Origin: an uncultured Bacteroidales bacterium
Lineage (GTDB): Bacteria; Bacteroidota; Bacteroidia; Bacteroidales; VadinHA17
NCBI GenBank assembly: GCA_963825165.1
Contig: CAWGRY010000001.1
Span: forward strand, 1,384 to 65,383
Reading direction: 5' to 3'
Length of the DNA: 64,000 bases
The notes under the pieces were generated by a model. That model was not told the DNA's origin. It saw only the letters and a program-made list of their open reading frames with translations, and ran no database searches. Position 1 is the first letter of the stretch; each line of letters begins with the position of its first letter. Below, in pieces: positions 1 through 18,252 of the stretch. Position numbers and translations under genes: made by a program.

Positions 1-37
1 GGAGCACAATTCGGAGTAAAGTTTTAAATAATACGCA

Positions 38-329
38 TGCTAACAGGTCGGTATATGCAATTGCCGTCCGGCTGGTTTTTGCGCGCTGATCCGTTAGACC
101 AACACACCAAAACCAGTTGGTGCTTTATCGGCCCGGCTTTGCGGTTAAAGCCGCCGGGCAAAAACCAGCCAGGCTGCCCCGGCTGCCGCCGGGATCTCCC
201 CTCTGGTGTCATGGTTTTTGCCAACGCGATAAATTTGTAACGAAAAGCACAATCCTACACCACAGCTTACCTGCAAAAACACATGCCACCGCGATACAAG
301 GCAACTGCACATACCGCCAAACGTTAGGC
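38..329 (+). repeat. attC-like site, family A long form (292 bp)
   Basis: R'' TGCTAAC 38-44, then L'' CGGTATATGCAATTGCC. L' GGCAACTGCACATACCG, then R' GTTAGGC 323-329. Carries the ~100-nt CTGGTTTTT...AAAAACCAG arm. Positions 1-322 duplicate 15321-15642. Confidence 0.85.
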
Positions 330-387
330 TTAATAAATCTCGCGAGATTTAGTTAACTTACTGTCATTTAATCTATCACTATTGAGA

Positions 388-1050
388 ATGAACACAAAAC
401 TTATATCATTTTTGATTGTACTGGTTTTAGTAACAATAGAAAAATCAAATGCACAAGATTTTCATTTTGGCATTCTAGGCGGCTTTGATAAGGTTAATAT
501 TCATCAAAAGCCTAAGTTTCCTAATGCAAAAGGGCCGCCATATCGTCCAATGGAATCTTATAATTTTAACTGTTTCATCTCATATAAAAGCAATAGCTTT
601 TGGGGATTTTGTGTTGAACCAGGATTTATTCAAAAGGGAGGCTCCAATGGAGTAAATAATTGCTGCAGATGGGAATTAAATTATTTGCAAATTCCCTTCT
701 CGACAGATATTTACGTATTGCCGAGATTATTTATTTCCATTGGACCAGAAGTTTCCTACCTATTAAGTGCAAAAGCTGTAAATGATTATCCTGGCCACGT
801 GCATACTGATGATATGTCCTCTATTTATAAATATAAATTTGAATTATCTGGTCTTGCAGGCATTAATTTTAGAGTCAACAAAGTTTTAGATATAGGTTTA
901 AGATACAATCATGGATTTACGAATATTGCAAAAATTGATGTAACTATTTTTGATGGTCCTAATTGGTATATTTTTCCGGTAAAGCAAAAAAGTCAATATC
1001 TTCAAATAAGGGTACGCGCTAGACTCTTCAACTTTTCAAAAAGCGCCTAG
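388..1050 (+). CDS. small outer-membrane beta-barrel-like protein (cassette)
   Basis: ATG 388 (the ORF track starts at TTG 382). Signal peptide MNTKLISFLIVLVLVTIEKSNAQ. Gly/aromatic alternating pattern like small Bacteroidota OMP barrels. Confidence 0.5.
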   Translation: MNTKLISFLIVLVLVTIEKSNAQDFHFGILGGFDKVNIHQKPKFPNAKGPPYRPMESYNFNCFISYKSNSFWGFCVEPGFIQKGGSNGVNNCCRWELNYLQIPFSTDIYVLPRLFISIGPEVSYLLSAKAVNDYPGHVHTDDMSSIYKYKFELSGLAGINFRVNKVLDIGLRYNHGFTNIAKIDVTIFDGPNWYIFPVKQKSQYLQIRVRARLFNFSKSA

Positions 1051-1094
1051 ACTAAGACATTGGAAATGATTTTGACGATCTAAAAATTTACTAA

Positions 1095-1485
1095 GCCTAA
1101 CACGGACAATATGGGTAAGTTGCTTGTCACGGTTTTTGCTTTTGCTCCTGCACTCAAGACAAATTTGTAATGGTCGTTGCACCCGGACACGCTCATCTGC
1201 TCTCAATTTAAATCCTGCACCGTGACTAATTTCTGGCTCCGAGACAAATTGTACCGCGACACTGCGCCAGTGCCCGTCACCAAATTTGTAACCGGGGATA
1301 AACTCGCGGCTTCGATCAAACTTGTACCGCGATCTCGCCAGAACGCAATAATATTTGTACCATGACGGCAAAAACACGTGCCATACCCTCCTTGCACCGG
1401 GACAACTTTGTGGCTAAAGTACCAGGTCTCTGCCCGGTGCCCGCGTCGGATAACACAACCTCCCCATATTGCCGGGCCGTTAGGC
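1095..1485 (+). repeat. attC-like site, family B (391 bp)
   Basis: R'' GCCTAAC 1095-1101 plus L'' GGACAATATGGGTAAGTTG. L' CAACCTCCCCATATTGCC plus R' GTTAGGC 1479-1485. Six internal AAnTTTGTA(A/C)C motifs. Confidence 0.8.
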
Positions 1486-1505
1486 ACAATAATAAAACAT
1501 ATCAA

Positions 1506-2201
1506 ATGAAGAGAGCTTTATCTATCATTATCATATCAATAGCATGGCTATCAGGCTATTCCCAATCCTGTAGCTGTCCTGATTTTGAATTTTCATCCTC
1601 AGAGAACTTGCCTATTATAAATATCAAAAGTGGTCAAAGCCAACTTATAGTCTGTGGTTATAGTAATGTTGATCTTGACTGCGGTTTTATATCAGGAGTT
1701 TTTCAAAAAAACTCCTCAGTTTACCTAAGTGGATTTAACGTGTTTTCTTGCACCGACAAGCCTACTTCAATAATATACTTTGGAGAATTAAATGCCTATA
1801 AATTAAGACCATATAAGAATTACCTTATCATTGATTTGATTTTAAACTTACCTATTGGCAAGGATTTAAGCTATGAGTACACCTCATTGATAAGATATCG
1901 GATTTCAAAACAGCAAGACAAATGGATATTAAGTAAACCACAAGTCGTTTTGGATTATAGTGCTTTAACAGACTTTGATTTCTTTAAGATAAAAAAGGAT
2001 CTCGGTTGGGATAAAATGTATCCTGAGTTTATGTTTCCCCGAAATGAAGCCTACGAAGAAAATAAGATTATGTATGCTTTCATTGTAGCCTTGAAGAACT
2101 ATCCAAAGTATAATCAGGATTTTACCAACCTAGGTAACTTTGATGGCTATCTTGTTGAGTTACACAATGAGTTGAAACAAATTCTTATTGAAATAGAATA
2201 A
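1506..2201 (+). CDS. hypothetical secreted protein (cassette)
   Basis: ATG 1506 is the first start outside the preceding repeat (track start 1362 lies inside the repeat). Signal peptide MKRALSIIIISIAWLSGYSQ. Confidence 0.5.
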   Translation: MKRALSIIIISIAWLSGYSQSCSCPDFEFSSSENLPIINIKSGQSQLIVCGYSNVDLDCGFISGVFQKNSSVYLSGFNVFSCTDKPTSIIYFGELNAYKLRPYKNYLIIDLILNLPIGKDLSYEYTSLIRYRISKQQDKWILSKPQVVLDYSALTDFDFFKIKKDLGWDKMYPEFMFPRNEAYEENKIMYAFIVALKNYPKYNQDFTNLGNFDGYLVELHNELKQILIEIE

Positions 2202-2208
2202 TTACTGT

Positions 2209-2451
2209 GCCTAACAGGTCGGTATATGCAATTGCCTTCCACGCCAGGACAACTTTAAAGCCACCACAACAGATTTTTACTGTCTGGCGTGGGCTGGCCC
2301 CGCTGCTACGGGGCACTCCCCTATGGTGTCATGGTTTTTGCTAACGCGATAAATTTGTAACGAAAAGCACAATCCTACACCACAGCTTACCTGCAAAAAC
2401 GCATGCCACCACGATGCTGCGGCAACTGCACATACCGCCGGAACGTTAGCT
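2209..2451 (+). repeat. attC-like site, family A (243 bp)
   Basis: R'' GCCTAAC 2209; R' GTTAGCT 2445; same L''/L' boxes as 38-329. Confidence 0.85.
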
Positions 2452-2458
2452 GCAAGCG

Positions 2459-2538
2459 GATGTTACGTAATAAATTATAAAATATGTTACGTATGTGAAA
2501 ATAATTACGTATATTTGCAGTAAATAAATCACGTAGCA
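2459..2538 (+). promoter_or_regulatory. cassette-internal promoter/operator of the vapBC-like module
   Basis: Four TTACGTA-type half-palindromes (GTTACGTAA, GTTACGTAT, ATTACGTAT, TCACGTAG) surround TATATTTG 2510-2517, which matches the Bacteroidota -7 consensus TAnnTTTG. Confidence 0.5.
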
Positions 2539-2787
2539 ATGGATACAAAACTCACACTCAATGTAGACAGCGAATTAGTCCAGAAGGCTAAATCGTACGC
2601 AAAAGACAAAGGGCGTAGCCTTTCTGACCTGGTTGAAATGTATTTCAAAGCTTTAACACACAGAAAAGCTATCAGTGATAACGAGCTGACTCCAAAGGTA
2701 CGGTCTTTACACGGGTCATTTAAAGTGCCTCGGGATTTTGACTATAAGAAAGAATTATCGGATCAGCTGACCAATAAATACCTCTAG
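2539..2787 (+). CDS. antitoxin of PIN-toxin module (VapB-like by position)
   Basis: 82 aa small charged protein. Its stop lies 1 nt before the PIN toxin start. Confidence 0.6.
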   Translation: MDTKLTLNVDSELVQKAKSYAKDKGRSLSDLVEMYFKALTHRKAISDNELTPKVRSLHGSFKVPRDFDYKKELSDQLTNKYL

Positions 2788-2788
2788 A

Positions 2789-3220
2789 ATGGAAAATGTA
2801 TTTATTGACACAGATGTCATTGTTGACTTCCTTATTGATAGAAAACCCTTTTCACTTGAATCTGCCAAAATATTTTCATTGATTGATCAAAAGAAAATCA
2901 AAGGCTGTGTTTCATCCCTTTCATTCAGTAACCTCTATTACGTTCTCAGAAAGCTTGGAACCCACAAAAAGGTTATCAGTAGCCTTCAGGAATTGTCTGA
3001 ATTGGTAGATATTCTGAAAGTTGATAGTGATACAGTTAAGTCTGCGCTTGCCTCGGATTTCAAAGACTTTGAGGATTCAATTCAATATTTTGCAGCTCAA
3101 GAGTATAAAAAGGTAGACTTTATAATCACAAGAAATATTAAAGACTACAAGGATAGTTCTCTACCTGTTATGACACCAGAAACGTTTCTTGTCACATTTG
3201 AAAACACCGCCAGCAGCTAA
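2789..3220 (+). CDS. vapC: PIN-domain ribonuclease toxin (VapC family)
   Basis: 143 aa. N-terminal FIDTDVIVDF acidic motif, DFEDSIQY, IITRN: PIN pattern. Paired with the upstream small ORF. Confidence 0.75.
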   Translation: MENVFIDTDVIVDFLIDRKPFSLESAKIFSLIDQKKIKGCVSSLSFSNLYYVLRKLGTHKKVISSLQELSELVDILKVDSDTVKSALASDFKDFEDSIQYFAAQEYKKVDFIITRNIKDYKDSSLPVMTPETFLVTFENTASS

Positions 3221-3506
3221 CAAAGCGGTATATGCAATTGCCTTCCGGCTGGTTTTTGCGCGCTGATCCGTTAGACCAACACACCAAAACCAGTTGGTGC
3301 TTTATCGGCCCGGCTTTGCGGCTAAAGCCGCCGGGCAAAAACCAGCCAGGCTGCCCCGGCTGCCGCCGGGATCTCCCCTCTGGTGTCATGGTTTTTGCCA
3401 ACGCGATAAATTTGTAACGAAAAGCACAATCCTACACCACAGCTTACCTGCAAAAACACATGCCACCGCGATACAAGGCAACTGCACATACCGCCAAACG
3501 TTAGCT
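3215..3506 (+). repeat. attC-like site, family A long form (292 bp)
   Basis: R'' AGCTAAC 3215 (contains the vapC stop TAA 3218-3220); R' GTTAGCT 3500. Confidence 0.85.
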
Positions 3507-3546
3507 GCAAGGCCATAGCAATCAGCCAGATGCCTCAAACTAATTA

Positions 3547-3987
3547 ATGATGATCAAAAGAACCTTAATAGCAACAATTGTACTACTGACCGTATATGGT
3601 AATGCTCATTCACAAAAAGTTGAAATTCCATATCACAATTGGCCTTATTATAGTTGCTTAAACACTCAGAATCCAGAGAAATTTGTTGTTAACTCAAAGG
3701 AGGGTTTAGAAAAAATCGGACATTGCAGTCATATTAATTTTGATCTTAATAAACATACAATTATCGGCGTATATGGATTTTCATTGGGTGATAGAAAACC
3801 AGAAATCTCTTATAGAATATTAAAAGATTCTGAACTTAAAAAATACAATATAGAAGCGTCAGTTTATTGCGGAAAATGGACATATTTAAGAATTCATCAC
3901 CATAGGTACCGCAAGGTTGTCTTTACTGAAAAACTTGATCCTGATTATTTGATTGATTTCAATGTTCAAGTAATATATGATAAGTGA
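3547..3987 (+). CDS. hypothetical secreted protein (cassette)
   Basis: Signal peptide MMIKRTLIATIVLLTVYGNAHSQ; no recognised domain. Confidence 0.5.
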   Translation: MMIKRTLIATIVLLTVYGNAHSQKVEIPYHNWPYYSCLNTQNPEKFVVNSKEGLEKIGHCSHINFDLNKHTIIGVYGFSLGDRKPEISYRILKDSELKKYNIEASVYCGKWTYLRIHHHRYRKVVFTEKLDPDYLIDFNVQVIYDK

Positions 3988-4001
3988 ATAAAAAGCCCAG
4001 C

Positions 4002-4245
4002 AGCTAACAAAGCGGTATATGCAATTGCCTTCTGTGCCACGAGAATTCTCTGACTAAAGAGGACAGTCTTATGACCGGCGGCACAGGCTGCCCCGGCTGC
4101 AGCCGGGGACTCCCTCCTGGTGTCACGGTTTTTGCCAACGCGATAAATAGGTAACGAAAAGTACAATCCTGCACCACTGCATACCTGCAAAAACTCGTGC
4201 CACCGCGATACAAGGCAACTGACCCATACCGCCGGACCGTTAGGG
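4002..4245 (+). repeat. attC-like site, family A (244 bp)
   Basis: R'' AGCTAAC 4002; R' GTTAGGG 4239. Confidence 0.85.
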
Positions 4246-4517
4246 CTAATAGCTCCGGTTAATAATGTTAAGTAAAAATTGGGGGCAAGCATTTCATCTC
4301 GCTCCCATCTGACTCGCCAACGCGCCGTGATTTATATTAATAGAAATCAGAAAGAGTAATAACAAACCATCAAGCACGAACCGCGATTACCCCCCAACTC
4401 AGCAGTAGTCCTCCGCCTCCAGAAATGTAGTAAAAGCGTTTTGTGTAAGTATAATATCCCTCTTAAAATAATCATTCCCGCATTTATCAATGCTCAACAA
4501 TAAGCCTCCGCTACAAT
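4246..4517 (+). repeat. ORF-less cassette body, copy 1 of 4 (candidate structured RNA or regulatory cassette)
   Basis: No ORF >=60 aa on + strand. Homologous to 7598-7876, 11290-11569 and 12522-12799. Conserved TTGGGGG(G)...CCCCCCAA long-range complement. Confidence 0.6.
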
Positions 4518-4762
4518 CCCTAACAGGGCGGTATAGGTCATTGCCTTCTGTACCGCGAGAATTTTCTGGCTAAAGAGGGCCGGGAAGTGGCCGGCGGTAC
4601 AGGCTGCCCCGGCTGTAGTCGGGGTCTCCCTCATGGTGTCACGGTTTTTGCCAACGCGAAAAATAGGTAACGAAAAGTACAATACAGCACCACAGCATAC
4701 CTGCAAAAACTCGTGCCACCGCGATGCTGCGGCAACTGACCCATACCGCCGGACCGTTACAA
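4518..4762 (+). repeat. attC-like site, family A' variant (245 bp)
   Basis: R'' CCCTAAC 4518 plus L'' CGGTATAGGTCATTGCC. L' GGCAACTGACCCATACCG plus R' GTTACAA 4756. Confidence 0.85.
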
Positions 4763-4812
4763 GTAATTTTTGGCCAACCTAGAGTGATGATTTTGAAACA
4801 AATCTTTGCATT

Positions 4813-5319
4813 ATGAAATACTCAACCATAATCTTGACAGTGATAGTATCTTTAACTGTCCTTACCAATTGTAATAATCGTACTGAAAAATTCTCAATAA
4901 CAGACAGTATCTCAATCACATTGCCCAAGGATATCAAAATCCTCAAATCGGATACCAGTTATAATATACTGGAAGCTACACATAATGGGGACTTAATAAA
5001 CGTCTATAAAGTTTCAATTAACCTGACAGATTCTCTAAGCACTGACCTCAGGAAGCTTGCATTTGTGAATAATATTAATGGGTTCATCAAACCTTTTAAT
5101 TTTAAGAACCTTGATACCACTTTCCTATCTCAAAGTGGTTTAATGCAAAATGATATAAGATTTGAATTTGAAAGCCACGGTAATCAAAAAGAACTTTTTG
5201 GACGTTTTTATGCCACAGGCAAAGACTTCATTGCTATCTGTTATCAGATGCCCTTTCCTAGTGACAAAAAATCCTTGAAATTCAAAGACAAGTTTTTCTC
5301 TTTGATTAGACTAGAATAA
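4813..5319 (+). CDS. hypothetical lipoprotein (cassette)
   Basis: MKYSTIILTVIVSLTVLTNC lipobox-like N-terminus. Confidence 0.5.
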   Translation: MKYSTIILTVIVSLTVLTNCNNRTEKFSITDSISITLPKDIKILKSDTSYNILEATHNGDLINVYKVSINLTDSLSTDLRKLAFVNNINGFIKPFNFKNLDTTFLSQSGLMQNDIRFEFESHGNQKELFGRFYATGKDFIAICYQMPFPSDKKSLKFKDKFFSLIRLE

Positions 5320-5326
5320 AAACTAC

Positions 5327-5566
5327 TTGTAACAGGTCGGTATATGCAATTGGCTTCTGCACCGCGAGAAAATTGTGGTCGGCATGAAAAACCTTCAATG
5401 GCGGTGCAGGCCGCCCCGGCTCCCGCCGGGGACTCCCTCCTGGTGTCACGGTTTTTGCCAACGCGAGAATAATGTAATAACCGTATAACCCTGCATCGCA
5501 CCGCGAGTGCAAAAACACGCGCCACCGCGGCTCTGCGCCAACTGCACATACCGCCGAACGTTAGCA
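5327..5566 (+). repeat. attC-like site, family A (240 bp)
   Basis: R'' TTGTAAC 5327; R' GTTAGCA 5560. Helices: P1 5338-5354/5537-5553, P2 5357-5365/5401-5409, P3 5414-5420/5425-5431, P4 5442-5458/5509-5526. Confidence 0.85.
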
Positions 5567-5599
5567 CCAATTTTGGAATACCTAACAAAAAAACTATAT

Positions 5600-5992
5600 A
5601 TGAAATTCCCTGCTGCAAACGTCTCATTGAAAGATTGGGATCCTAATGAGGATTATCTTCTTTATGTTCTAATGGACCCTTTTTACTGTCGATCCGAGAA
5701 TGAATTTTACAGAACGTATTACCATAATCAAAAATATGTTGACTCGAATGGTGAAGTATACAAGGTAATTGATAAAAAACCTCCAAAATCATTATTAAGA
5801 AATATTTTCAGATTTCTTCCAGGGGTTTACAAAGTTGAGTTGATATTCTCTAATACAGGAGAAAAAATGGGACTTGCTGAGGTAAAAGAATTCATCCTAA
5901 AACAGGTTAAAAAAATAGAAGATGAAAATGCATCGGAATGGATTGATAATATAAAAAAGGCTAAATCAATTCAAGAGGTATTGGGAGGCTAA
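5600..5992 (+). CDS. hypothetical cytoplasmic protein (cassette)
   Basis: ATG 5600 is the first start downstream of the repeat (track start 5507 is inside the repeat). No signal peptide. Confidence 0.45.
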   Translation: MKFPAANVSLKDWDPNEDYLLYVLMDPFYCRSENEFYRTYYHNQKYVDSNGEVYKVIDKKPPKSLLRNIFRFLPGVYKVELIFSNTGEKMGLAEVKEFILKQVKKIEDENASEWIDNIKKAKSIQEVLGG

Positions 5993-6001
5993 TAAAACTG
6001 G

Positions 6002-6244
6002 TGCTAACAGGTCGGTATATGCAATTGCCGCTCCGCACCGCGAGAATCTTCTGGCCAAAGGGGATCGTTAAGTGGTCAGCGGTGCGGCCCGCCCCGGCTC
6101 CCGCCGGGGACTCCCTCCTGGTGTCACGGTTTTTGCCAACGCGAGAATAAACAACTAACAGCATAATCCTGCACCGCACCACGACTGCAAAAACGCGTGC
6201 CGCCGCGACTCTGCGCCAACAACACATACCGCCGAACGTTATGG
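6002..6244 (+). repeat. attC-like site, family A (243 bp)
   Basis: R'' TGCTAAC 6002; R' GTTATGG 6238. Confidence 0.85.
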
Positions 6245-6289
6245 GCCATTCGGAGTTAGCTCTCAATTAATTATCAAAATCCAAATTAA

Positions 6290-7354
6290 ATGGAACAAGG
6301 ATCAGTTTATTTGGTAATCCATTTCCCTAAGAACTTTCCCATTGGTATTGACCATCAAATAGAGTTAATCTCATCGCCGGTTAAAGACGCAACTTTTAAA
6401 ATTTATGCCTTTCCTGACGGGCATTTGAAAATAGTGGTACAAGAAAACAACATTGTGTATTCATCTTTTGAATCACAACCTATTAGGTTCCTTTCAGACA
6501 ATAATAGAATCATTTCATATATCTGGAACGGTCCTACTGCTTCATTTAAAATTAACATGTCTCCTATTGGATCAAAAGAAATATCAGAACTATTGATAAT
6601 TCAAGATAAAGAACGCCCAAATGTGCAGGTAAATCAAGAAAATGAATTTGACTCAGTTAATCTTAAAAAATGTGTTCAATTTCGCAATGAGATGTTCAAT
6701 CCTAGTAAAACATTTGCAAAACCAGACCGAAGAGCAAAAACAGAGCAAGAGCAAGTACTCGAATTATACAACCTATCCAAAAGCTTAGAACACAACTTTA
6801 CAGAATGGTCTTCAGGGGAAAGTTATTTAATAATCACTATTTTATCCTTACTGAGAAGCCTTCTTTGCCATAAAAAAGTAATCAAGACATCTGACAAGTT
6901 GATATATAATCCACTGTTGTTCAGGATTGCTTCGTATAAATCCCTTTCGCTTCCAGTCTATGCTGATCCAGTAAATAGACAAATTCCACAGAATATGTTG
7001 GACATTTCGGAAAACACCCTATCACATCTGGTTTTCAATGTCCCCTCATTAACCAAGACTTCCAGGACACAAGTATTGATGGATTTTCAAGAATGGTTAA
7101 ATGGAGAAATTCTGATTGTTTATAAAGATAAAGAAGCCATTTTTTATTCAATTAATCAGTTATTATTAGAAAGTTCAAACACAATTGGTGGTGGACACTT
7201 TGATCCCACTATTCCATTAAATATTGATTATTTGAGAAATACATCAAGCTTCTCAATAGATGTTATTAATAGAATTGCTGCCATAACATCTGATCTAAGT
7301 ATACACTTTTGCAACCTAGTACTCTCCCATTTTAAAGCTATTGAAGAAAGTTAA
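6290..7354 (+). CDS. orphan 354-aa cytoplasmic protein (cassette)
   Basis: Long uninterrupted ORF filling the cassette. No signal peptide and no motif I recognise. Confidence 0.55.
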   Translation: MEQGSVYLVIHFPKNFPIGIDHQIELISSPVKDATFKIYAFPDGHLKIVVQENNIVYSSFESQPIRFLSDNNRIISYIWNGPTASFKINMSPIGSKEISELLIIQDKERPNVQVNQENEFDSVNLKKCVQFRNEMFNPSKTFAKPDRRAKTEQEQVLELYNLSKSLEHNFTEWSSGESYLIITILSLLRSLLCHKKVIKTSDKLIYNPLLFRIASYKSLSLPVYADPVNRQIPQNMLDISENTLSHLVFNVPSLTKTSRTQVLMDFQEWLNGEILIVYKDKEAIFYSINQLLLESSNTIGGGHFDPTIPLNIDYLRNTSSFSIDVINRIAAITSDLSIHFCNLVLSHFKAIEES

Positions 7355-7375
7355 AACAAGTCACAAAAGAACGGC

Positions 7376-7597
7376 CCATAACAGGTCGGTATATGCAATT
7401 GCCTTCCGGCCAGCGGGACAAACATCAAGGTAGAAACCTTCCTATTCCCGCTGCCCGGGCCACCACACTTGGTGTCATGGTTTTTGCCAACGCGATAAAT
7501 TTGTAACGAAAAGCACAATCCTACACCGCAGTATACCTGCAAAAACTCATGCCACCGCGATACTGCGGCAACTGCACATACCGCCGGACCGTTAGGG
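7376..7597 (+). repeat. attC-like site, family A short form (222 bp)
   Basis: R'' CCATAAC 7376; R' GTTAGGG 7591; variable arm CCAGCGGGA...TCCCGCTG. Confidence 0.85.
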
Positions 7598-7876
7598 CTA
7601 ATAGCTCCGGTTAATAAAGTGAAGTAAAAATTGGGGGGCAAGCATTTCATCCCGCTCCCATCTGACTCGCCAACGCGCCGTGACATAGATAAACAGAAAT
7701 CAGAGAGAGTTATAACAAACCATCAAGCACGATCCGCGATTACCCCCCAACTCAGCATTAGTCCTCCGCTTTCAGGGATGTAGTAAAACCGTTTTGTATA
7801 AGTGTAATATCCCTCTTCAAATAATCATTCCCGCATTTATCAATGACCCGCATCAACAATAGTCCTCCGCTACAAT
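7598..7876 (+). repeat. ORF-less cassette body, copy 2 of 4
   Basis: Homologous to 4246-4517. TTGGGGGG 7631-7638 is complementary to CCCCCCAA 7743-7750. Confidence 0.6.
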
Positions 7877-8120
7877 CCCTAACAGGGCGGTATAGGTCAT
7901 TGCCTTCTGTGCCGCGAGAATCTTCTGACTAAAGGGGACCGCTCTGTGGCCGGCGGTACAGGCTGCCCCGGCTGCAGCCGGGGTCTCCCTCTTGGTGTCA
8001 TGGTTTTTGCCACCGCGGTAAATTTGTAACGAAAAACATAATCTGACACCACAGTTTGCCTGCAAAAACACATGCCACCGCGATGCTGCGGCAACTGACC
8101 CATACCGCCAAACGTTAGCA
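7877..8120 (+). repeat. attC-like site, family A' (244 bp)
   Basis: R'' CCCTAAC 7877; R' GTTAGCA 8114. Confidence 0.85.
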
Positions 8121-8140
8121 CACATTATAAAACTGCCCAA

Positions 8141-8965
8141 ATGAAATCATTAGCGATAACTCTCTTCCTCTTTCTAGTATCGTGCAAATCAGTCAACATA
8201 AAGGAAGGCTTCCAGACATTCACAAAAAGTGATGTTTATAACTGGAGAGATTGCACAATTCCTAATCAAGACTACATTGATAATGAATTCCCAAAGATTA
8301 GAAAGCACTTCAATGAATATGTGGCAAATATTGACACGTTGGCCAGAGCATTACATTTTATTGATCTGAATAATGATAAAGAACTTGATGTAATCTACTC
8401 TGGGACCTCCGGTGCTGCAAGCGACTGTGTTATCTTCCTCCTCAATATTGATAACGACTACAAAATTCTCTTTGAAGAATATACCAATATTAGAGACCTA
8501 CTGTTTGAAGGCGGAAAATTAGTCGGATATATAGGATTAGACTTTGGTTGTTGTGCAGAGTACATACAAAAAGAAACAAAATATAAAGTATCAGAAGATT
8601 GGAATAGAATTGTTGTATACCAAAGAGTAAAAGCTTCATATACTGAACTCCCAGAAAAACTCTTTGAGAAACCTATAGTGTTTGAAATAGAAAGTGATAC
8701 TTTAAAACTAAGAGCTACAGCCATAAATGATGATACTAACATATTTATTTATGATACAATTGGCAATGTAGTCTCATCATACTTAAAAGGCTCCAGAGGC
8801 TATGCTTGGTCAGAAAAACAAAATGACCTGGGAGAGATATGGTGGTTTGTTGAAATGGAACCAAACAATAGCCAAATTGGTTCGAGAATCAACCACAACC
8901 CTGACAAACTTCCACAAAGAAACCTAGGTTGGTTTCCAACTGTGAACTTAACAACTTTAAAATAA
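8141..8965 (+). CDS. hypothetical lipoprotein (cassette)
   Basis: MKSLAITLFLFLVSC lipobox. DLNNDKELDVIYSG is reminiscent of an FG-GAP/VCBS-type repeat (weak). Confidence 0.5.
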   Translation: MKSLAITLFLFLVSCKSVNIKEGFQTFTKSDVYNWRDCTIPNQDYIDNEFPKIRKHFNEYVANIDTLARALHFIDLNNDKELDVIYSGTSGAASDCVIFLLNIDNDYKILFEEYTNIRDLLFEGGKLVGYIGLDFGCCAEYIQKETKYKVSEDWNRIVVYQRVKASYTELPEKLFEKPIVFEIESDTLKLRATAINDDTNIFIYDTIGNVVSSYLKGSRGYAWSEKQNDLGEIWWFVEMEPNNSQIGSRINHNPDKLPQRNLGWFPTVNLTTLK

Positions 8966-8969
8966 CGTG

Positions 8970-9211
8970 TGCTAACAGGTCGGTATATGTCATTGCCTTC
9001 CGTACCGCGAGAACTTTCTGGCTAAAGAGGACCGTTAATTGGCCAGCGGTACGGGCCGCCCCCGGCACCGCCGGGGGACTCCCGCTGGTGTCACGGTTTT
9101 TGCCAACGCGAGAATAAAGTACTAACCGTATAATCCAACACCGCACTACGAGTGCAAAAACACGCGCCACCGCGACTTTGCGGCAACGCCACATACCGCC
9201 GAACGTTATAA
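8970..9211 (+). repeat. attC-like site, family A (242 bp)
   Basis: R'' TGCTAAC 8970; R' GTTATAA 9205. Confidence 0.85.
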
Positions 9212-9279
9212 ACCATTGAAAGCCTGCAAATAAGTAAATTTGAGATTAAATTTGAGCACAGTAGAAAGTCTTTCATGAC

Positions 9280-9723
9280 ATGAGAAATACAAGTCCAAAG
9301 TATAATACTTCAGTTTCTTTCGAAACATCAATGATTGCTGCCTGCGGTATGAATTGTGGATGCTGTATTGGTTACATGAGACCGAAAAATAAATGTCCAG
9401 GATGTAGATTTATAATTGAAGGTAAAGCTAGAGTTCATTGTGTAATAAGAAATTGCGATTTACTCAAAAAGACTGACTCTAATTTCTGTTTTGATTGTCA
9501 GAAATATCCATGTCAGAGATTAAAACAACTTGATAAAAGATACCGAACAAGGTACAATACCAGTTTTCTTGAAAATCTAATGATGATTAAACAAAAGGGA
9601 ATGGATTACTTTCTTTCTTTTGAAACCGACAGAAGGAAGTGTCCCGACTGTGGAGCAACTTTAAGTGTTCACCGTGGCCAATGTCTAGCCTGTTCGAAAA
9701 TTTTAAATAACAACGGTTTATAA
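9280..9723 (+). CDS. Cys-rich DUF3795-like protein (cassette)
   Basis: CGMNCGCCIGY...CPGC...CFDCQKYPC...CPDCG pattern as in DUF3795. 99 percent-like duplicate at 28310-28753. Confidence 0.6.
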   Translation: MRNTSPKYNTSVSFETSMIAACGMNCGCCIGYMRPKNKCPGCRFIIEGKARVHCVIRNCDLLKKTDSNFCFDCQKYPCQRLKQLDKRYRTRYNTSFLENLMMIKQKGMDYFLSFETDRRKCPDCGATLSVHRGQCLACSKILNNNGL

Positions 9724-10109
9724 CACGGACAATATGGGTAAGTTGTTCGTCACAGTTTTTGCTTTTACTCCTGCACTCAAGACAAATTTGTAATGGTTGT
9801 TGCACCCGGACACGCGCATCTGCTCGCAATTAAAATTCAGTTTACATTGACAGATTTTCAGTTTCGAGATAGTCTGTACCGCGACACTGCACCAGTACAC
9901 GCCACCAAATTTGTAACCGGGAATAAATTCGCGGCTCCGATCAAACTTGTACCGCTATCGCGCGAGTAGGTAATAAAATTTGTACCATGACGGCAAAAAC
10001 TGCGCCGTACCCTCCTTGCACCGGGACAGCTTTGTGGCCTACCGGGACAACTTTGTGGCGGTGCTGGCGTCGAGTAACACAACCTCCCCATATTGCCGGG
10101 CCGTTAGGC
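9718..10109 (+). repeat. attC-like site, family B (392 bp)
   Basis: R'' TTATAAC 9718 (contains the stop TAA 9721-9723); R' GTTAGGC 10103; near-identical copy at 28748-29139. Confidence 0.8.
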
Positions 10110-10144
10110 GTCATAATTTCTATTGCTGCAAAGTATCTATCAAA

Positions 10145-10585
10145 ATGAAAAAAATAATCTTTTTATCTGCGCTCTTTCTAATTTTCGCCCTCTCAATCGT
10201 CAATTGCAAGAAGGACGACCCCGTTGATATTGTTCTGCATGATAAATCTTTAAAGACTATTCAGCAGTACATACACGGGCAATGGAGATTAGTTTATTCG
10301 AAAACAGGTTCTACCAGGTATCCTTGCGATAATTGTAGTGTTGAATTTACCCAGGATGATAAATTTATAAGCAATGTCTTGACAATTTATGTAACGCCAT
10401 ATTCTATTATCTGGGTTAAAGACAAAGGTATGTTTCTTAATGGAGATTTTACTTTTCTAATGACCATAGGCCACGAATTTGGATATTCTCAATCTTTTGT
10501 AATTGACAAAATTATTAATGACACTCTAATATTTTATGAAAACTTTGAATTTCCATATTCATACTATTGCGTAAAATCGAGATAA
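10145..10585 (+). CDS. hypothetical lipoprotein (cassette)
   Basis: ATG 10145 lies outside the repeat. MKKIIFLSALFLIFALSIVNC lipobox. The duplicate at 21083-21523 differs by one residue (F/S). Confidence 0.55.
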   Translation: MKKIIFLSALFLIFALSIVNCKKDDPVDIVLHDKSLKTIQQYIHGQWRLVYSKTGSTRYPCDNCSVEFTQDDKFISNVLTIYVTPYSIIWVKDKGMFLNGDFTFLMTIGHEFGYSQSFVIDKIINDTLIFYENFEFPYSYYCVKSR

Positions 10586-10633
10586 TATGCCTTCTTAAAA
10601 TGCAATTAATCAGTGACAAATAAAATTACGAAC

Positions 10634-10855
10634 GCCTAACAGGTCGGTATATGCAATTGCCTTCCGGCCAGCGGGACAAACATTAAGGTATAAATCTTCC
10701 TATTCCCGCTGTCCGGGCTACCACACTTGGTGTCATGGTTTTTGCCAACGCGATAACTTTGTAACGAAAAACATAATCTTGCACCGCAGTTTACCTGCAA
10801 AAACTCATGCCACCGCGATGCTGCGGCAACTGCACATACCGCCGGAACGTTAGGT
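10634..10855 (+). repeat. attC-like site, family A short form (222 bp)
   Basis: R'' GCCTAAC 10634; R' GTTAGGT 10849; duplicate at 21572-21793. Confidence 0.85.
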
Positions 10856-11289
10856 TTCATGCCAGAGACAAACTATTAATTATGAAAAAGGGATTCTGAT
10901 TGATATTTTGAAACAGCATTAGACACTTTTATCATGCAACCAAGGTAGACTACTTAATAAATAATGATTATTCAGCTCTGAATGATTAGATATGCTTTAT
11001 CAGACTATGAAAGATTTTACTAGTGAATGATGCCAAATTCATGTATCAATCTATTGGGATAAACTAAGAACATCACATGAGAGAAAAAGTAATGAAAGTC
11101 ACTCAGAACAAAAGAAGATGCAAAAAATGAAAAACTGAACTATTTTCTGATAAATGGAAGATATTTCGAGAGACTTATGGCTTCGTAATCGCCAAAAGTC
11201 TATGCTCACAATGTCAATTCACTTATTAAATTTTCGGTACCATGATCTAATCCTGCTACCAAGACAAAGTCAATAGGGTTGCGTTAGGG
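10856..11289 (+). pseudogene. decayed cassette: no ORF >=60 aa, plus an internally deleted family-C repeat remnant
   Basis: AT-rich with many stops. 11215-11282 matches an internal segment of the repeat at 32712-33068 (…TTATTAAA.TT.CGGTACC.TGAT.TAATCCTGCTACC…) and ends in GTTAGGG 11283-11289. The expected R'' ACCTAAC was not found. Confidence 0.45.
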
Positions 11290-11569
11290 CTAATAGCTCC
11301 GATTAAATAATATACAATAAATTGGGGGGCAAGCATTCCGTCCCGCTCCCATCCGACTCGCCAACGCACCGTTACTTAGGATAAATAGAAATCAGAGAGA
11401 GTAATCAACAAACCATCAAGCACGAGCCGCGATTACCCCCCAACTCAGCAGTAGGCCTCCGCTTCCAGGGATGTAGTAAAATTGTTTTGTGTAAGGGTAA
11501 TATCACTCTCCAAATAATCATTCCCGCATTTATCAATGACCCGCATCAACAATAAGCCTTCGCTACAAT
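11290..11569 (+). repeat. ORF-less cassette body, copy 3 of 4
   Basis: Homologous to 4246-4517 and 7598-7876. Confidence 0.6.
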
Positions 11570-11813
11570 CCCTAACAGGGCGGTATAGGTCATTGCCTTC
11601 TGTACCGCGATAATCTTCTAACTAAAGAGGACCGTCTTGTGGCCAGCGGCACAGGCTGCCCCGGCTGCAGCCGGGGACTCCCTCTTGGTGTCATGGTTTT
11701 TGCCAACGCGATAACTTTGTAACGAAAAGTACATATCCTGCACCGCAGTTTGCCTGCAAAAACTCATGCCACCGCGACACAAGGCAACTGACCCATACCG
11801 CCAAACGTTAGCG
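11570..11813 (+). repeat. attC-like site, family A' (244 bp)
   Basis: R'' CCCTAAC 11570; R' GTTAGCG 11807. Confidence 0.85.
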
Positions 11814-11869
11814 TGCATTTAACACATTTGGAACAATTATTGTGGCAAATTGATTATAAAGAACATCCT

Positions 11870-12253
11870 ATGAAAAACAAGATCTCAATTGGATCTTTAA
11901 TTTGTATAATCCTGATATCGTTCGCTTGTACCAGTGAAGATCAAATAGGTAGCTTTTCTGGTAAGAGTGTTGATGACTTGATCATTGGCAAATGGAACAC
12001 GTCGTATAGTTCTAGAGATTTGAATAACGGTATTACCGTTTTCTTTGATACCATAACATTTAATTCAAGCAACCAAGGATATCATATAATATACGAATTC
12101 AATAACTTACGCTTTTCTAATCCATTCCAATTTTATACCGAAGGCAGCTCCCTACACTTAAAATATAATCAAATTGAGGATGAAGTTCTATGGACATATT
12201 CAATCCTGAATGATAGTCTGATCTTAAAGGGTAACAAGATTTACAAAAGATAG
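11870..12253 (+). CDS. hypothetical lipoprotein (cassette)
   Basis: ATG 11870; MKNKISIGSLICIILISFAC lipobox. Confidence 0.5.
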   Translation: MKNKISIGSLICIILISFACTSEDQIGSFSGKSVDDLIIGKWNTSYSSRDLNNGITVFFDTITFNSSNQGYHIIYEFNNLRFSNPFQFYTEGSSLHLKYNQIEDEVLWTYSILNDSLILKGNKIYKR

Positions 12254-12278
12254 CCAACCTGGTTTATAATTAAACGCA

Positions 12279-12521
12279 CGCTAACAGGTCGGTATATGCA
12301 ATTGCCGCTCCGTGGCGCGACAATTGAGTAACTAAAGAGGCGGTTTTGTGGCTGGCGCCACGGCCCGCCCCGGCTCCCGCCGGGGTCCCCCTGCTGGTGT
12401 CACGGTTTTTGCCAACGCGAGAATAAACTACTAACAGCATAATCTTACTCCGCACCACGAGTGCAAAAACACGCGCCACCGCGAAGCTGCGGCAACATGC
12501 ACATACCGCCGAACGTTAGGG
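12279..12521 (+). repeat. attC-like site, family A (243 bp)
   Basis: R'' CGCTAAC 12279; R' GTTAGGG 12515. Confidence 0.85.
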
Positions 12522-12799
12522 CTAATAGCAGCGGTCAAATTTTTGTATTATAAATATTGGGGGGCCAGCATTCCGGCTCGCTTCAAACTGACTCGCCATC
12601 GCGCCGTTACTTAGAAAGTTTAGACTATAAGGATATTTAAGAGCCATCTACCACGACTGTCTATTACCCCCCAACTCAGCGACACGCCTCCGCTCCCGGG
12701 ATAGTATAACAACTGGCTGTGCATGGATTTATACCCGCTTCTGCCTTTAAGGTCGCAATAGTTCTATAACCCGCATTTACATTAAACCGTTGCTACAAT
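12522..12799 (+). repeat. ORF-less cassette body, copy 4 of 4 (divergent)
   Basis: Keeps the GCTAATAGC start, ATTGGGGGG, CTGACTCGCCA.CGCGCCGT, ATTACCCCCCAACTCAGC and CTACAATCCCTAAC blocks. The rest has diverged. Confidence 0.5.
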
Positions 12800-13075
12800 C
12801 CCTAACAAGGCGGTATAGCTCATTGCCTTCGGCCAGCGGGACAATTAAGTAACAGAAAAGACATATAAGCATTCGCTGGCCGGCCCTCCCGCGGGTGAAT
12901 TATTGTTTTTTGCGGTAGTTTCAAAAGTAAATAACAGAAAAAGAGATTAATTTCAACTCCCAAGCAGGACTGCCCGCTCTAAGGGGACAAATACTACCCG
13001 GCATGATTGGCGGGCGCAAAAAACATTCACCCTGGCTAATCTGCGGCAACTGAGCCATACCGCCGACCGTTAGCA
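12800..13075 (+). repeat. attC-like site, divergent family A' (276 bp)
   Basis: R'' CCCTAAC 12800 plus CGGTATAGCTCATTGCC. GGCAACTGAGCCATACCG plus R' GTTAGCA 13069. The interior differs from the other copies. Confidence 0.75.
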
Positions 13076-13096
13076 TTAATGGTAAAATGAATTCAT

Positions 13097-13480
13097 ATGT
13101 TTGATGAGTTAAGAAAATACAAACAGACAGGCCATTTCTTTCTGAGAATGAATAATAGCCTAATAGAAGAATGTAATGCCCCTTCCGATAAATGTGGAGT
13201 GTATTTAATCTTCGCACTAAAAGGTGGCCGCATTGAACTAGTCAAGATCGGTAGTACAAATCTGGATGAGAACCTGTTGGAACAAATTATAAAAGAACAA
13301 CTACTCTTAAAGTCAAAGTTCCAACAAGAGAAAATTGAGGCCCTAGATATCTATTGGTATGTAACCCTAACAAATAAAGTGGTGGATGATCCATACAAGG
13401 TTATGGGTAAAGTGCTAAAGATTCATACCATGATTAACGGAAAAGCTCCAAGATGGAATTTAGTAAATAAAAACCACTAA
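13097..13480 (+). CDS. hypothetical protein, weak GIY-YIG-like N-terminal pattern (cassette)
   Basis: CGVYLIFALKGGRIELVKIGST resembles GIY..(10-11)..YIG spacing. Not verified. Confidence 0.35.
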   Translation: MFDELRKYKQTGHFFLRMNNSLIEECNAPSDKCGVYLIFALKGGRIELVKIGSTNLDENLLEQIIKEQLLLKSKFQQEKIEALDIYWYVTLTNKVVDDPYKVMGKVLKIHTMINGKAPRWNLVNKNH

Positions 13481-13701
13481 TGCTAACAGGTCGGTATATG
13501 CAATTGCCTTCCGGCCAGCGGGACAAACATCAAGGTATAAACCTTCCTATTCCCGCTGTCCGTGCCACCACACGTGGTGTCATGGTTTTTGCCAACGCGA
13601 TAAATAAGTAACGAAATTCACTCTCCTACTGCGCAGTATACCTGCAAAAACGCATGCCACCGCGATGCTGCGTCAACTGCACATACCGCCGAACGTTAGG
13701 C
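13481..13701 (+). repeat. attC-like site, family A short form (221 bp)
   Basis: R'' TGCTAAC 13481; R' GTTAGGC 13695. Confidence 0.85.
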
Positions 13702-13776
13702 TGCATGTCAAGCGAATGTCGTTTGCATGATAAATAAAAAATACTTACTTTTGTCGTTAGTAACGTTAAACGTAAT
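13702..13776 (+). promoter_or_regulatory. cassette-internal promoter/operator of higBA
   Basis: TACTTTTG 13746-13753 matches TAnnTTTG. TGCATG direct repeats and the CGTTAGTAACG palindrome lie nearby. The identical region occurs at 26149-26223 (motif 26193-26200). Confidence 0.45.
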
Positions 13777-14061
13777 ATGATTACTTCATTTGGGTCAAAA
13801 GAGACTGAGAAAATTTGGCACGGTGACCGTGTAAAAAACATGCCTCCAGAGATCCAAATGATTGGCAGAAGAAAACTAAGAATGTTAAATAACTCTCAAA
13901 ACCTTAACGATCTCAGGGTCCCTCCTTCCAATAAGTTAGAAAAGTTGAGCGGTAAAATGAATAATCTTTATAGCATTCGCATTAATGATCAATGGAGAAT
14001 AACATTTAATTGGGACGATGGACTAGCAAGTGAGGTTACAATTATTGACTATCATAAATAA
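13777..14061 (+). CDS. higB: HigB-type toxin (RelE/ParE superfamily, plasmid maintenance system killer)
   Basis: 94 aa. ...WHGDRVK...LRML...L.DLRVPPSNKLEKLSG....YSIRINDQWRI.F.W pattern typical of HigB. Toxin-first order, with the HTH antitoxin downstream. Confidence 0.8.
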   Translation: MITSFGSKETEKIWHGDRVKNMPPEIQMIGRRKLRMLNNSQNLNDLRVPPSNKLEKLSGKMNNLYSIRINDQWRITFNWDDGLASEVTIIDYHK

Positions 14062-14066
14062 GTGAC

Positions 14067-14366
14067 ATGGAAACTTTACCAAATATACACCCCGGAGAAG
14101 TGCTTCTTGAAGAATTCCTGAAGCCTATGAGTATTTCTGCTTACAGATTATCAAAAGACATCGGAATTCCTCAGACAAGAACTTCTGAGATAATAAAGGG
14201 TGCCAGAAGAATAACGGCTGATACTGCTCTCAGGCTCAGTTACTATTTTGGTAATTCTGCAAAATTCTGGCTCGGTCTTCAAAATGATTACGATATAGAA
14301 GAAGAAAAGAAGACCAAAAAGGACGAGTTTAAAAGCATTAAAAAAGCAAAACAACACGCAGCCTAA
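14067..14366 (+). CDS. higA: HigA-type antitoxin (XRE HTH)
   Basis: HPGEVLLEEFLKPMSISAYRLSKDIGIPQTRTSEIIKGARRITADTALRLSYYFGNSAKFWLGLQNDYD is the classic HigA signature. Confidence 0.85.
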   Translation: METLPNIHPGEVLLEEFLKPMSISAYRLSKDIGIPQTRTSEIIKGARRITADTALRLSYYFGNSAKFWLGLQNDYDIEEEKKTKKDEFKSIKKAKQHAA

Positions 14367-14652: not shown

Positions 14653-14711
14653 TGCATATTAGACTGATGGTGTAGCTATTATCTTAAATATCAACTAACA
14701 AATTCAAAACC

Positions 14712-15347: not shown

Positions 15348-15357
15348 ATAATACGCA

Positions 15358-15649: not shown

Positions 15650-15677
15650 GTAATTAACCCTATTTCCGAATCATTGG

Positions 15678-16598: not shown

Positions 16599-16602
16599 CT
16601 AC

Positions 16603-16843: not shown

Positions 16844-16867
16844 GTCATGCAATGTAACAACCTAGAT

Positions 16868-17332: not shown

Positions 17333-17341
17333 TGCACGAAC

Positions 17342-17586: not shown

Positions 17587-17599
17587 TGAATGCGAAGTG

Positions 17600-18244: not shown

Positions 18245-18252
18245 AGCACTCA

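Follow-up and report, generated by a model that had tools for sequence, protein, structure and literature searches.

The site at positions 5327-5566 of the window, by which we mean the whole 64,000-nt stretch of Bacteroidales DNA analysed here, is best explained as an attC-type cassette recombination site with a branched variable arm, lying in a sedentary, chromosomal integron-like array and folding through its bottom strand. We assign this reading a probability of about three in four and favour it because the sites bound real cassettes.

The cassette array

Two motifs, AACAGGTCGGTATATG at the 5' end of the sites and CATACCGCCGAACGTT at the 3' end, are each present in the window in dozens of copies in a single orientation, with fewer than one match expected by chance. 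Pairing of the two motifs delineated 31 complete sites of 221-404 nt, in addition to which the window contains about eight truncated or divergent ones, so that the figure of 39 sites given in an earlier note on this DNA is plausible. The intervals between the sites encompass one or two ORFs each, almost all on the plus strand. Among the cassette genes are PIN, HigB/HigA (HigB/HTH) and Gp49-type toxin-antitoxin genes, together with many genes for proteins that belong to no family, a mix that is typical of chromosomal integrons. One cassette is present twice in the window, and whole cassettes recur in other genomes, at 82-93% identity and in different array contexts. At its right end the array degenerates, and the genes that follow, from about 44 kb on, look like ordinary chromosomal ones, including those for RsgA, a GH2 glycosidase and an amidohydrolase. 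An Rfam scan of the window at gathering thresholds yielded no families, and an ARAGORN scan of the window yielded neither tRNA nor tmRNA. GC skew gives no orientation of the array relative to the replication strands because the sites themselves bias the skew.

The boundaries of the cassettes follow a simple rule. In 20 of the 30 pairs of neighbouring sites, the hexamer behind the GTT of one site is exactly reverse-complementary to the hexamer ahead of the AAC of the next one. The mean match between consecutive sites is 5.0 of 6 bases, compared with 2.6 for random pairing (maximum 3.5 in 2000 permutations) and 2.7 within a single site, that is, between its own R' and its own R''. The exceptions are found where the two sites are separated by a divergent or truncated one. 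In the site at 5327-5566, AGCACC after the GTT is the reverse complement of the bases before the AAC of the next site (6006). This complementarity is the classical footprint of circular cassettes inserted by crossover at G|TT, and it identifies the repeats as integron-type cassette sites. A REP/MITE-like repeat was also considered and is ruled out by the same rule.

Table 1. The cassette array and the parts of the site at 5327-5566, in window coordinates (the written strand, +, is the top strand)
Feature	Positions	Strand	Remarks
Cassette array	1..44050	+	About 39 repeated sites between mostly single-ORF, + strand cassettes
Complete site under study	5327..5566	+	Family A, 240 nt; bottom strand predicted to be the folding one
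R'' box TTGTAAC	5327..5333	+	First four bases are the reverse complement of the R' tail of the previous site
5' spacer AGGTC	5334..5338	+	Same sequence in 193/214 sites
P1, 5' arm (L'' side) GGTATATGCAATTGGC	5339..5354	+	A5344 and A5349 are fixed mismatches (helix positions 6 and 11)
P2, variable hairpin	5357..5409	+	CTGCACCGC 5357-5365 with GCGGTGCAG 5401-5409
P3, short G+C hairpin	5414..5431	+	CCCCGGC 5414-5420, loop TCCC, GCCGGGG 5425-5431
P4, hairpin	5442..5526	+	GGTGTCACGGTTTTTGC 5442-5458 with GCAAAAACACGCGCCACC 5509-5526
P1, 3' arm (L' side) GCCAACTGCACATACC	5537..5552	+	C5547 and C5542 are opposite A5344 and A5349
3' spacer GCCGAAC	5553..5559	+	In 160/214 sites; two bases longer than the 5' spacer
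R' box GTTAGCA	5560..5566	+	Predicted crossover between G and TT

Anatomy and covariation of the four helices

The 5' motif was found in 118 loci. The arrays belong to many MAGs from the Bacteroidales, the Rikenellaceae and other Bacteroidota; one further MAG is from the Ignavibacteriaceae. From the window and 60 of these loci, 214 distinct complete sites were collected. Over all loci, the sites are 60-440 nt long, with a sharp mode at 240 nt, and those of 60-140 nt are rare. For the analysis of pairing, the window and about 60 related Bacteroidales/Rikenellaceae loci supplied 147 sites of 236-250 nt, which were aligned as bottom strands (alignment A1), with the structure imposed from the reference site at 5327-5566. 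RNAalifold run on a plain MAFFT alignment missed P1, owing to the placement of gaps in the GCA/GTC variants.

The earlier note had proposed four helices, P1 to P4, and a base-by-base check of the reference site agrees with all of them. P1, which the note delimited one base pair more widely than Table 1, consists of CGGTATATGCAATTGGC (5338-5354) paired with GCCAACTGCACATACCG (5537-5553), with A5344 facing C5547 and A5349 facing C5542. In A1, 94.4% of the 9529 cells form standard pairs, compared with 36-48% when the partners are slid by 1-3 columns, and 23 pairs show two-sided changes, compared with 12.5 ± 1.6 after shuffling (none of 500 shuffles reached 23); since the sites share ancestors, counts of cells inflate the tally of independent events, and covariation is judged more safely from the slid controls and from how many distinct arm variants occur.

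All four helices show covariation. The support is broadest for P2, where nine of nine pairs covary, 97% of the cells are paired and at least 10 distinct, fully Watson-Crick arm variants occur, such as CCGCACCGC/GCGGTGCGG, CCGTGGCGC/GCGCCACGG, CTGTGCCGC/GCGGCACAG and GCATGCCGC/GCGGCATGC. Eight of the 19 pairs of P1 covary; these include the swap between TTGGC/GCCAA and TTGCC/GGCAA (G-C versus C-G, in 93 and 37 sequences, respectively) and a second swap between C-G and A-T (79 versus 34 sequences). P4 shows one clear swap, between C-G and T-A (132 versus 11 sequences; CACG/CGCG versus CATG/CATG), and P3 a change between G-C and C-G in four sequences. All the compensatory examples quoted in the earlier note, for P1, P2 and P4, were thus recovered. 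In the other site families of the window, P1 and P4 are kept and the P2/P3 arm is replaced or enlarged.

Additional helices were sought as well. A fifth helix that appears in the single-sequence fold (GCCGC/GCGGC, 5410-5414 with 5527-5531) is not conserved, with 68% of the cells paired. A helix within the P4 loop (CGCGG/TCGCG) is 92% paired and has no two-sided changes. An all-against-all scan of the alignment columns produced mostly noise from subfamily linkage and no convincing further helix or pseudoknot.

Every one of the 147 aligned sites has the AAC and GTT boxes unchanged, and 97.7% of the cells in the TAAC/GTTA helix are paired. The spacers (5 nt, AGGTC, and 7 nt, GCCGAAC) are conserved, unequal and only partly pairable; in attC, the unpaired central spacer measures about 5-6 nt per arm. 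The likeness to attC that the earlier note had suggested is thus borne out by the boxes, by the unequal spacers and by the 20 of 30 matching cassette boundaries. The L stem of the main family has 16 bp, with arms of equal length and no bulge, and a single bulged A is found at the edge of the spacer. Minor variants have a bulged T on the arm opposite L'', and in one site of 66 nt the L'' side carries two additional bases.

The loop of P2 starts with the motif CGCGAGAA; the top-strand motif (C)CA(A/C)CGCGA is present in three copies at fixed places in the arms; and the A+T-rich loop of P4, of about 50 nt, is strongly conserved though unpaired. The thrice-repeated arm motif and the P4 loop could be protein-binding sites.

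Strand asymmetry

The earlier note had pointed to fixed positions in P1 at which the top strand carries A·C mismatches and the bottom strand G·T wobbles, and this asymmetry extends across the sample. On the top strand, position 6 of P1 is A·C in 206 of the 214 sites, G-C in five and A-T in three, and the neighbouring positions covary; position 11 is A·C in 171 of 214. The bottom strand has G·T at both. Beside the AAC/GTT boxes lies a third fixed A·C, A5334 facing C5559, which becomes G·T on the bottom strand in 147 of 147 sites. P4 holds a further fixed wobble, in 124 of 147 sites; in the reference site, P4 has the mismatch A5448·C5520, which is G·T on the bottom strand. Over the whole structure, the bottom strands in A1 have 1067 G·T cells versus 150 A·C cells, and standard pairs make up 94.4% of the cells on the bottom strand versus 84.8% on the top strand. 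Supported helices contain about 4.4 G·T pairs per site on the bottom strand and 0.3 on the top strand. The one-sided intermediates in P2 and P3 lean the same way, with G·T on the bottom strand in 31 versus 12.

The bottom strand also out-folds the top strand, as the earlier note had predicted. Folded as ssDNA, the bottom strand of the site at 5327-5566 reaches -56.3 kcal/mol (z = -4.48; none of 200 shuffles was as good) and its centroid retains P1-P4; the top strand reaches -49.3 kcal/mol (z = -2.84), with a rearranged minimum-energy fold and a diffuse ensemble whose centroid is at -15. The bottom strand is favoured in all 31 complete sites of the window, by a mean of 7.4 kcal/mol, and in 212 of the 214 sites overall, by a mean of 6.9 kcal/mol, as well as in all 60 locus means; the nearest-neighbour DNA parameters behind these energies are approximate for G·T pairs and multiloops. 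Control 240-mers from the same array that are not sites (n = 150) are unbiased, with a mean difference of 0.08 ± 2.8 kcal/mol and none at or below -7.4.

The contribution of the wobbles was estimated by repairing them in a subsample of 60 sites. The strand difference, which averages -6.5 kcal/mol in the unmodified sites, shrinks to -4.6 kcal/mol when the wobbles of the R box and P1 are repaired to G-C, and to -3.5 kcal/mol when all modelled wobbles are repaired. The wobbles in the modelled helices thus account for about half of the energy difference, those in P1 for about 30%, and what is left is due to the G+T-rich loops of the bottom strand. The view put forward in the earlier note, that strand choice is achieved partly by wobble asymmetry, holds, and has to be qualified as to how much the wobbles contribute.

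The asymmetry does not depend on a particular helix sequence. As had been claimed for divergent families, the families of 120-137 nt, in which P1 is quite different (GGTATAACGCATAATGC, GGTATAGTTAATTGCC, GGTATAAATAATTTGGC), again have A versus G at positions 6 and 11, and the divergent 'CAATAT' families of the window keep at least the wobble at position 11. Among 66 distinct in-register arm haplotypes, A/G occurs at position 6 in 59 and at position 11 in 45, and the tetramers between these positions come in at least 10 different forms. The commonest variant elsewhere has an added fixed mismatch at position 9, T·C on the top strand and G·A on the bottom strand, and some P1 variants have a bulged T. 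Because the wobble positions are kept independently of the helix sequence, the pattern argues for selection on the wobbles themselves, beyond selection for pairing alone.

A different account would accept the sites as attC-type and see in the asymmetry a footprint of mutation or history that has no role in strand selection. The footprint could have been left by deamination of cytosines on whichever strand is single-stranded more of the time, or by a frozen ancestral difference combined with concerted evolution. A diffuse mutational bias would fit the G+T-richness of the bottom strand in loops and stems alike, and the half of the energy difference that survives the repair of all wobbles, but it would not choose fixed positions 5 bp apart. 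Common descent is evident in that all sites share an ancestry and whole cassettes are common to genomes at 82-93% identity; however, the same two helix positions wobble in families that differ in helix sequence, and repair to G-C or A-T in one step is seldom seen (8 of 214 at position 6) even though adjacent pairs have often changed on both sides. We consider a footprint of this kind rather unlikely.

The strand asymmetry also bears on whether the conserved fold acts as RNA, in the capacity of a 3' UTR stabiliser, terminator or antisense RNA, instead of as folded DNA. The sites lie directly 3' of ORFs, and covariation alone cannot separate RNA from DNA. The mRNA of the cassettes, however, would correspond to the top strand, with its A·C mismatches and poorly defined fold, whereas the strand that folds well is antisense to every cassette. 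Rfam matches are absent, and the AAC/GTT boxes and the cassette-boundary rule are features of recombination. A role as RNA appears extremely improbable.

Recombinase and attI-like sites in related loci

Searches of the window for a tyrosine recombinase and for an attI-like site found neither, so that the link to an enzyme rests on related loci. In six of these (L042, L044, L047, L070, L119 and L120), a recombinase of 404-448 aa is encoded upstream of the array, co-oriented with the cassettes. Where the sequence extends that far, the order in all six is the recombinase gene, an attI-like site with the end ATAAAC(A/G)AGTTAG, and the co-oriented array. The putative attI-like site, which terminates in AAACAAGTTAG, is a conserved stretch of about 80 nt ending in ACATATAAAC(A/G)AGTTAG that follows the recombinase gene on its 3' side in L042, L044, L070, L119 and L120; in L047 the equivalent region is only partly covered by sequence. 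The tail of the attI-like site in L042 matches the R'' of the first cassette at five of six bases. One gene lies between the recombinase gene and the attI-like site in L070 and L120, and the sequence of L120 stops just past its attI-like site. In L119 and L120, the element is located downstream of an rnf operon. The contig with L042 also bears L034, the nearest relative of the window cassettes.

The recombinase scores 198 bits against the IntI family TIGR02249 (cut-off 265), in two stretches, the better of which covers model positions 9-181, and 209 bits against archaeal XerA (cut-off 220); it is likewise below the cut-offs of XerC and XerD. In the match to VchIntIA (2a3v; 2.9e-34), query residues 138-303 correspond to IntI residues 12-177 and query residues 330-401 to IntI residues 246-317, so that about 42 IntI residues within 178-245, the region of the I2 insertion, have no counterpart in the recombinase. 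XerA (5hxy) aligns to it in one ungapped-looking stretch. The best structural match of the AlphaFold model of the recombinase (pLDDT 75) is XerA, followed by IntI. In this model, residues 1-70 form a confidently predicted extra N-terminal domain, followed by a linker. A fold search with the N-terminal domain returned weak matches to the HARP domain of SMARCAL1 (E = 0.014) and to the N-terminal domain of XPB (probability 0.5-0.8), no more than a hint that it may recognise DNA structure, as do the HARP and XPB damage-recognition domains, both of which bind structured DNA.

The position of this recombinase makes it the probable enzyme of the sites. That a canonical integrase encoded elsewhere serves the array instead, the array being an ordinary integron with overlong attC sites and the adjacent Xer-like recombinase being unrelated to it, could be argued from three facts: the window has no recombinase, the related arrays are covered by 8-21 kb of sequence each, and the IntI-specific insertion has been reported to be essential for integron function (PMC8138268). 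Yet a single recombinase family is found upstream and co-oriented at six of six loci, with the conserved attI-like site in five and partial coverage in L047, and in L119 and L120 it is the recombinase gene that lies downstream of the rnf operon. About 700 kb of related loci contain no second tyrosine recombinase with the IntI motif spacing, and the IntegronFinder 2.0 survey found almost no complete integrons in Bacteroidetes (PMC9024848). A canonical integrase acting from elsewhere therefore seems quite improbable.

Comparison with known integrons and Xer systems

The sites share many features with the attC sites of sedentary chromosomal integrons, such as the VCR of Vibrio cholerae: the R'' and R' boxes with AAC/GTT and the predicted crossover at G|TT, the unequal R-L spacers, the variable terminal structure, the high identity among the sites of one array, the presence of one site per presumably promoterless cassette, and the G:T-richer, more stable bottom strand (PMC5027507). 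They differ from these in several respects. The sites described here are 220-400 nt long, with a mode of about 240, and published attC sites range from 57 to 141 bp (PMC5027507). The variable region is a conserved three-hairpin junction instead of the single stem of VCR-type attC, and branched variable terminal structures are known from the attC sites of some chromosomal integrons (PMC5027507). In the L stem, the main family has fixed G·T at positions 6 and 11 and no extrahelical bases, whereas canonical attC has two or three extrahelical bases on L''. In an alignment with attC-aadA7, the wobble Ts on the L'' arm, 5 and 10 nt from the spacer, appear to lie near the canonical extrahelical G and T. 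The host also differs, being a member of the Bacteroidales, where integrons are reported to be nearly absent.

Bouvier et al. (2009, PMC2727003) ascribe strand discrimination in attC to three elements, namely, the central spacer, which stays unpaired, the extrahelical bases and the variable terminal structure; of these, the giant sites have the spacer (5 versus 7 nt) and an elaborate variable terminal structure. A bottom-strand excess of G:T is already known, too. In 263 ordinary attC sites, the bottom strand is richer in G:T mispairs and has the lower folding energy, by 2.12 kcal/mol or 7.6%, with a residual difference of 1.28 kcal/mol after removal of G:T (Nivina et al. 2016, PMC5027507). 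The wobble principle as such is therefore not new, and the suggestion in the earlier note that wobble asymmetry sets these sites apart from attC does not stand; what differs is that the asymmetry is stronger here and fixed in position, with a bottom-strand energy bias of about 7 kcal/mol compared with about 2 in ordinary attC. Within the open-access literature that we searched, arrays with attC sites of more than 200 nt have not been described from Bacteroidales, and PMC5027507 is the one paper that deals with wobbles in attC.

The recombinase of the related loci has the SAM-like core-binding domain and the catalytic domain in common with IntI (TIGR02249; VchIntIA, PDB 2A3V), is about equally similar to IntI and Xer, and adjoins a putative attI-like site; in integrons, the first cassette is inserted at the attI next to the integrase gene. 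It differs from IntI in scoring below the family cut-off, in lacking the I2 insertion, which in IntI contacts the extrahelical bases, and in possessing the extra N-terminal domain of about 70 aa with its linker. Its gene is co-oriented with the cassettes, whereas intI is divergent. Co-orientation of the integrase gene with the cassettes of a chromosomal array is also seen in 'inverted' chromosomal integrons, for instance in Treponema denticola, which differ from the loci described here in having a canonical IntI and attC sites of ordinary size. Xer dimer resolvases work without an array, on one dif site close to the terminus, and rely on a partner or FtsK, whereas the recombinase studied here adjoins attI-like sites and arrays at six of six loci. 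A precedent for single-strand activity of recombinases without the IntI insertion is provided by CTXφ, where XerCD acts on one specific folded strand of attP(+), an imperfect hairpin. In that case, however, a whole phage genome is integrated into dif, and cassette array, attI/attC pair and AAC/GTT boxes are all missing.

Several of the observations reported above count against the proposed reading of the sites, among them the lack of a recombinase in the window, the lack of the supposedly essential insertion in the enzyme of the related loci, the lack of extrahelical bases in the main family, and the limited share, about half, of the energy difference that the modelled wobbles explain.

Proposed mechanism

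Under the attC-type reading, each cassette would terminate in a site of 220-400 nt, the ends of which (R''-spacer-L'' and L'-spacer-R') would pair to form P1 and the AAC/GTT box. P1 and the R box would make up the recombinase-binding core, and P2, P3 and P4 the branched variable terminal structure closed by P1. The substrate is likely to be single-stranded DNA, in which the bottom strand would fold into the four-way structure. A tyrosine recombinase, presumably the one encoded in the related loci, would then bind the pseudo-symmetric R box CTAAC/GTTAG and L box GGTAT/ATACC, with strand exchange at G|TT.

The fixed G·T pairs, two of them at P1 positions 6 and 11, one in P4 and one beside the R box, together with the G+T-rich loops, give the bottom strand a defined predicted fold that is about 7 kcal/mol more stable than that of the top strand, on which the same positions are A·C mismatches in a diffuse fold. 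The wobble Ts on the L'' arm probably double as recognition marks read by the protein, because their positions approximate those of the canonical extrahelical bases. Recombination of double-stranded attC by way of cruciform extrusion is reported to be reduced when the variable terminal structure is long (PMC5027507), and for this reason the giant branched sites would be expected to confine recombination to single-stranded moments, stabilising a large array.

Implications

Integron biology rests on one model, in which a small hairpin with extrahelical bases is read by the IntI-specific domain. Three features of the present system appear new: the size and branching of the sites (220-400 nt, compared with the known 57-141), the fixed wobbles in place of the canonical extrahelical bases, and the recombinase of the related loci, which is Xer-like, co-oriented, without the IntI-specific insertion and adjacent to an attI-like site. 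The array points to cassette capture at sites whose length exceeds that of all described ones by a factor of two to four. It raises the questions of how a strand is chosen without extrahelical bases, of what the extra arms do, which might block cruciform extrusion, bind the N-terminal domain of the recombinase or tune excision, and of whether integron-like systems had more than one origin.

Taken further, the data might reflect an unrecognised, widespread integron lineage of Bacteroidales, with some Ignavibacteria-like members, characterised by an Xer-like integrase without I2, an N-terminal domain that perhaps recognises structure, and giant four-way attC sites in which fixed G·T pairs replace extrahelical bases as the strand mark. 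We offer this broader interpretation tentatively, at somewhat less than even odds. If it is true, the capture of cassettes as single strands either arose from Xer ancestors on two occasions or is older than the IntI insertion. Anaerobic Bacteroidales, the group in which surveys report integrons to be nearly absent, would then also harbour a large hidden reservoir of cassettes. Standard tools, with their IntI profile and attC models of ordinary size, probably miss these arrays. The recombinase family itself has thousands of members, which are labelled just 'XerD' or 'tyrosine-type recombinase'.

Divergent, reduced and decayed sites

The extra arms of the giant sites may be dispensable because, in related loci from other MAGs, we identified a recurrent 120-nt 'mini' site without the P2 and P3 hairpins and a 66-nt site that consists of the closing helix P1 alone. 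The 'mini' site combines a P1 of different sequence, containing three bottom-strand wobbles, with a short-looped P4 and one additional hairpin; the 66-nt site has two additional bases on the L'' side. Within the window, divergent families, with sites of 135 to about 394 nt, carry other spacers (ACGGA or CCGGGCC) and other L boxes (CAATAT...), retain a P4-like element, GTCACAGTTTTTGC, and preserve the A/G asymmetry of P1 at position 11 at least. Truncated or decayed sites, which are either 5' halves lacking the P1 3' arm or isolated 3' halves, cluster toward the distal (right-hand) end of the array, which ends at about 44 kb, adjoining a DUF4256 gene.

Features of the sites, arrays and recombinases (L-numbers, related loci from other MAGs; A1, bottom-strand alignment of 147 sites)
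Feature	Position	Strand or property
Divergent site families	window 9716-10109, 28746-29137, 23835-23972, 32718-33075	
Recurrent 120-nt 'mini' site	L042:2610-2730, L042:3935-4055; also L030, L088, L096	
66-nt site, P1 alone	L025:7661	- strand
Truncated/decayed sites	window 19474-19695, 31700-31839, 37208-37400, 40092-40400, 43927-44000	
(C)CA(A/C)CGCGA(G/C) copies, reference site	window ~5361-5368, 5464-5471, 5501-5506	top strand
P4 loop	window 5459-5508; A1 columns 64-122	A+T-rich, ~50 nt
14-nt palindrome copies	window 31092-31105, 34796-34809, 36300-36313, 37349-37362	perfect palindrome
Cassette with 115-aa ORF, two copies in array	window 17604-18283, 23988-24667	
Recombinase residues 1-70	L042:851-1060	N-terminal domain
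Exo/endonuclease-phosphatase family gene	L047, L070; L120:12112-12921	reverse strand in L047 and L070
Different tyrosine recombinase, 300 aa	L012:6448-7350	+

Repeated elements within sites and cassettes

Each site carries three copies of the top-strand motif (C)CA(A/C)CGCGA(G/C), whose fixed positions are shared by most sites: one copy opens the P2 loop, another opens the P4 loop and the third lies downstream of the P4 3' arm. These copies may represent direct repeats that bind a protein. In the window, CGCGA is found 91 times on the + strand vs 18 times on the - strand. Although modelled as unpaired, the P4 loop has many positions with a conservation of 90% or more between the genomes represented in A1; a column-pair scan of the aligned sites yielded no convincing pseudoknot partner for this loop.

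The perfect 14-nt palindrome CCCGATCTATCGGG, present in the window mostly as GCCCCGATCTATCGGGG, was detected in four copies vs none expected, and may be a tiny insertion, either mobile or templated. In some sites, it forms an additional mini-hairpin within P4 or at a junction. A related hairpin, CCCGATAGCTATCGGG, appears in the bottom-strand fold of the site at 27986-28241.

At least seven MAG loci outside the window carry further copies of the duplicated 115-aa-ORF cassette, with 81-87% identity.

Recombinases and their genomic neighbourhoods

The N-terminal domain of the Xer-like recombinase encoded upstream of the arrays in related loci is confidently predicted to adopt a β-β-α-β-β-α-β fold (pLDDT ~88), in which two Arg (R8, R16) and two Trp residues (W39, W46) are invariant. 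No Pfam family corresponds to this domain, and its fold resembles the HARP domain of SMARCAL1 and the damage-recognition domain of XPB only weakly.

In two MAGs (L119:1-9400 and L120:1-9800), an rnf operon (RnfC/D/G/E/A) lies upstream of the recombinase and array, and GPP34/DUF4180 neighbours are common to L044, L120 and L121. The recurrence of these neighbourhoods suggests that the recombinase and array occupy a chromosomal, vertically inherited location. The attI-like site directly follows the recombinase in L042, L044 and L119; in L047, L070 and L120, an exo/endonuclease-phosphatase family gene is located between the two.

In L012, from another Bacteroidales MAG, a different tyrosine recombinase directly adjoins, and is divergent from, a minus-strand site. 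The spacing of the HxLRH motif relative to the beta-strand region suggests that this predicted protein, too, lacks the IntI insertion.
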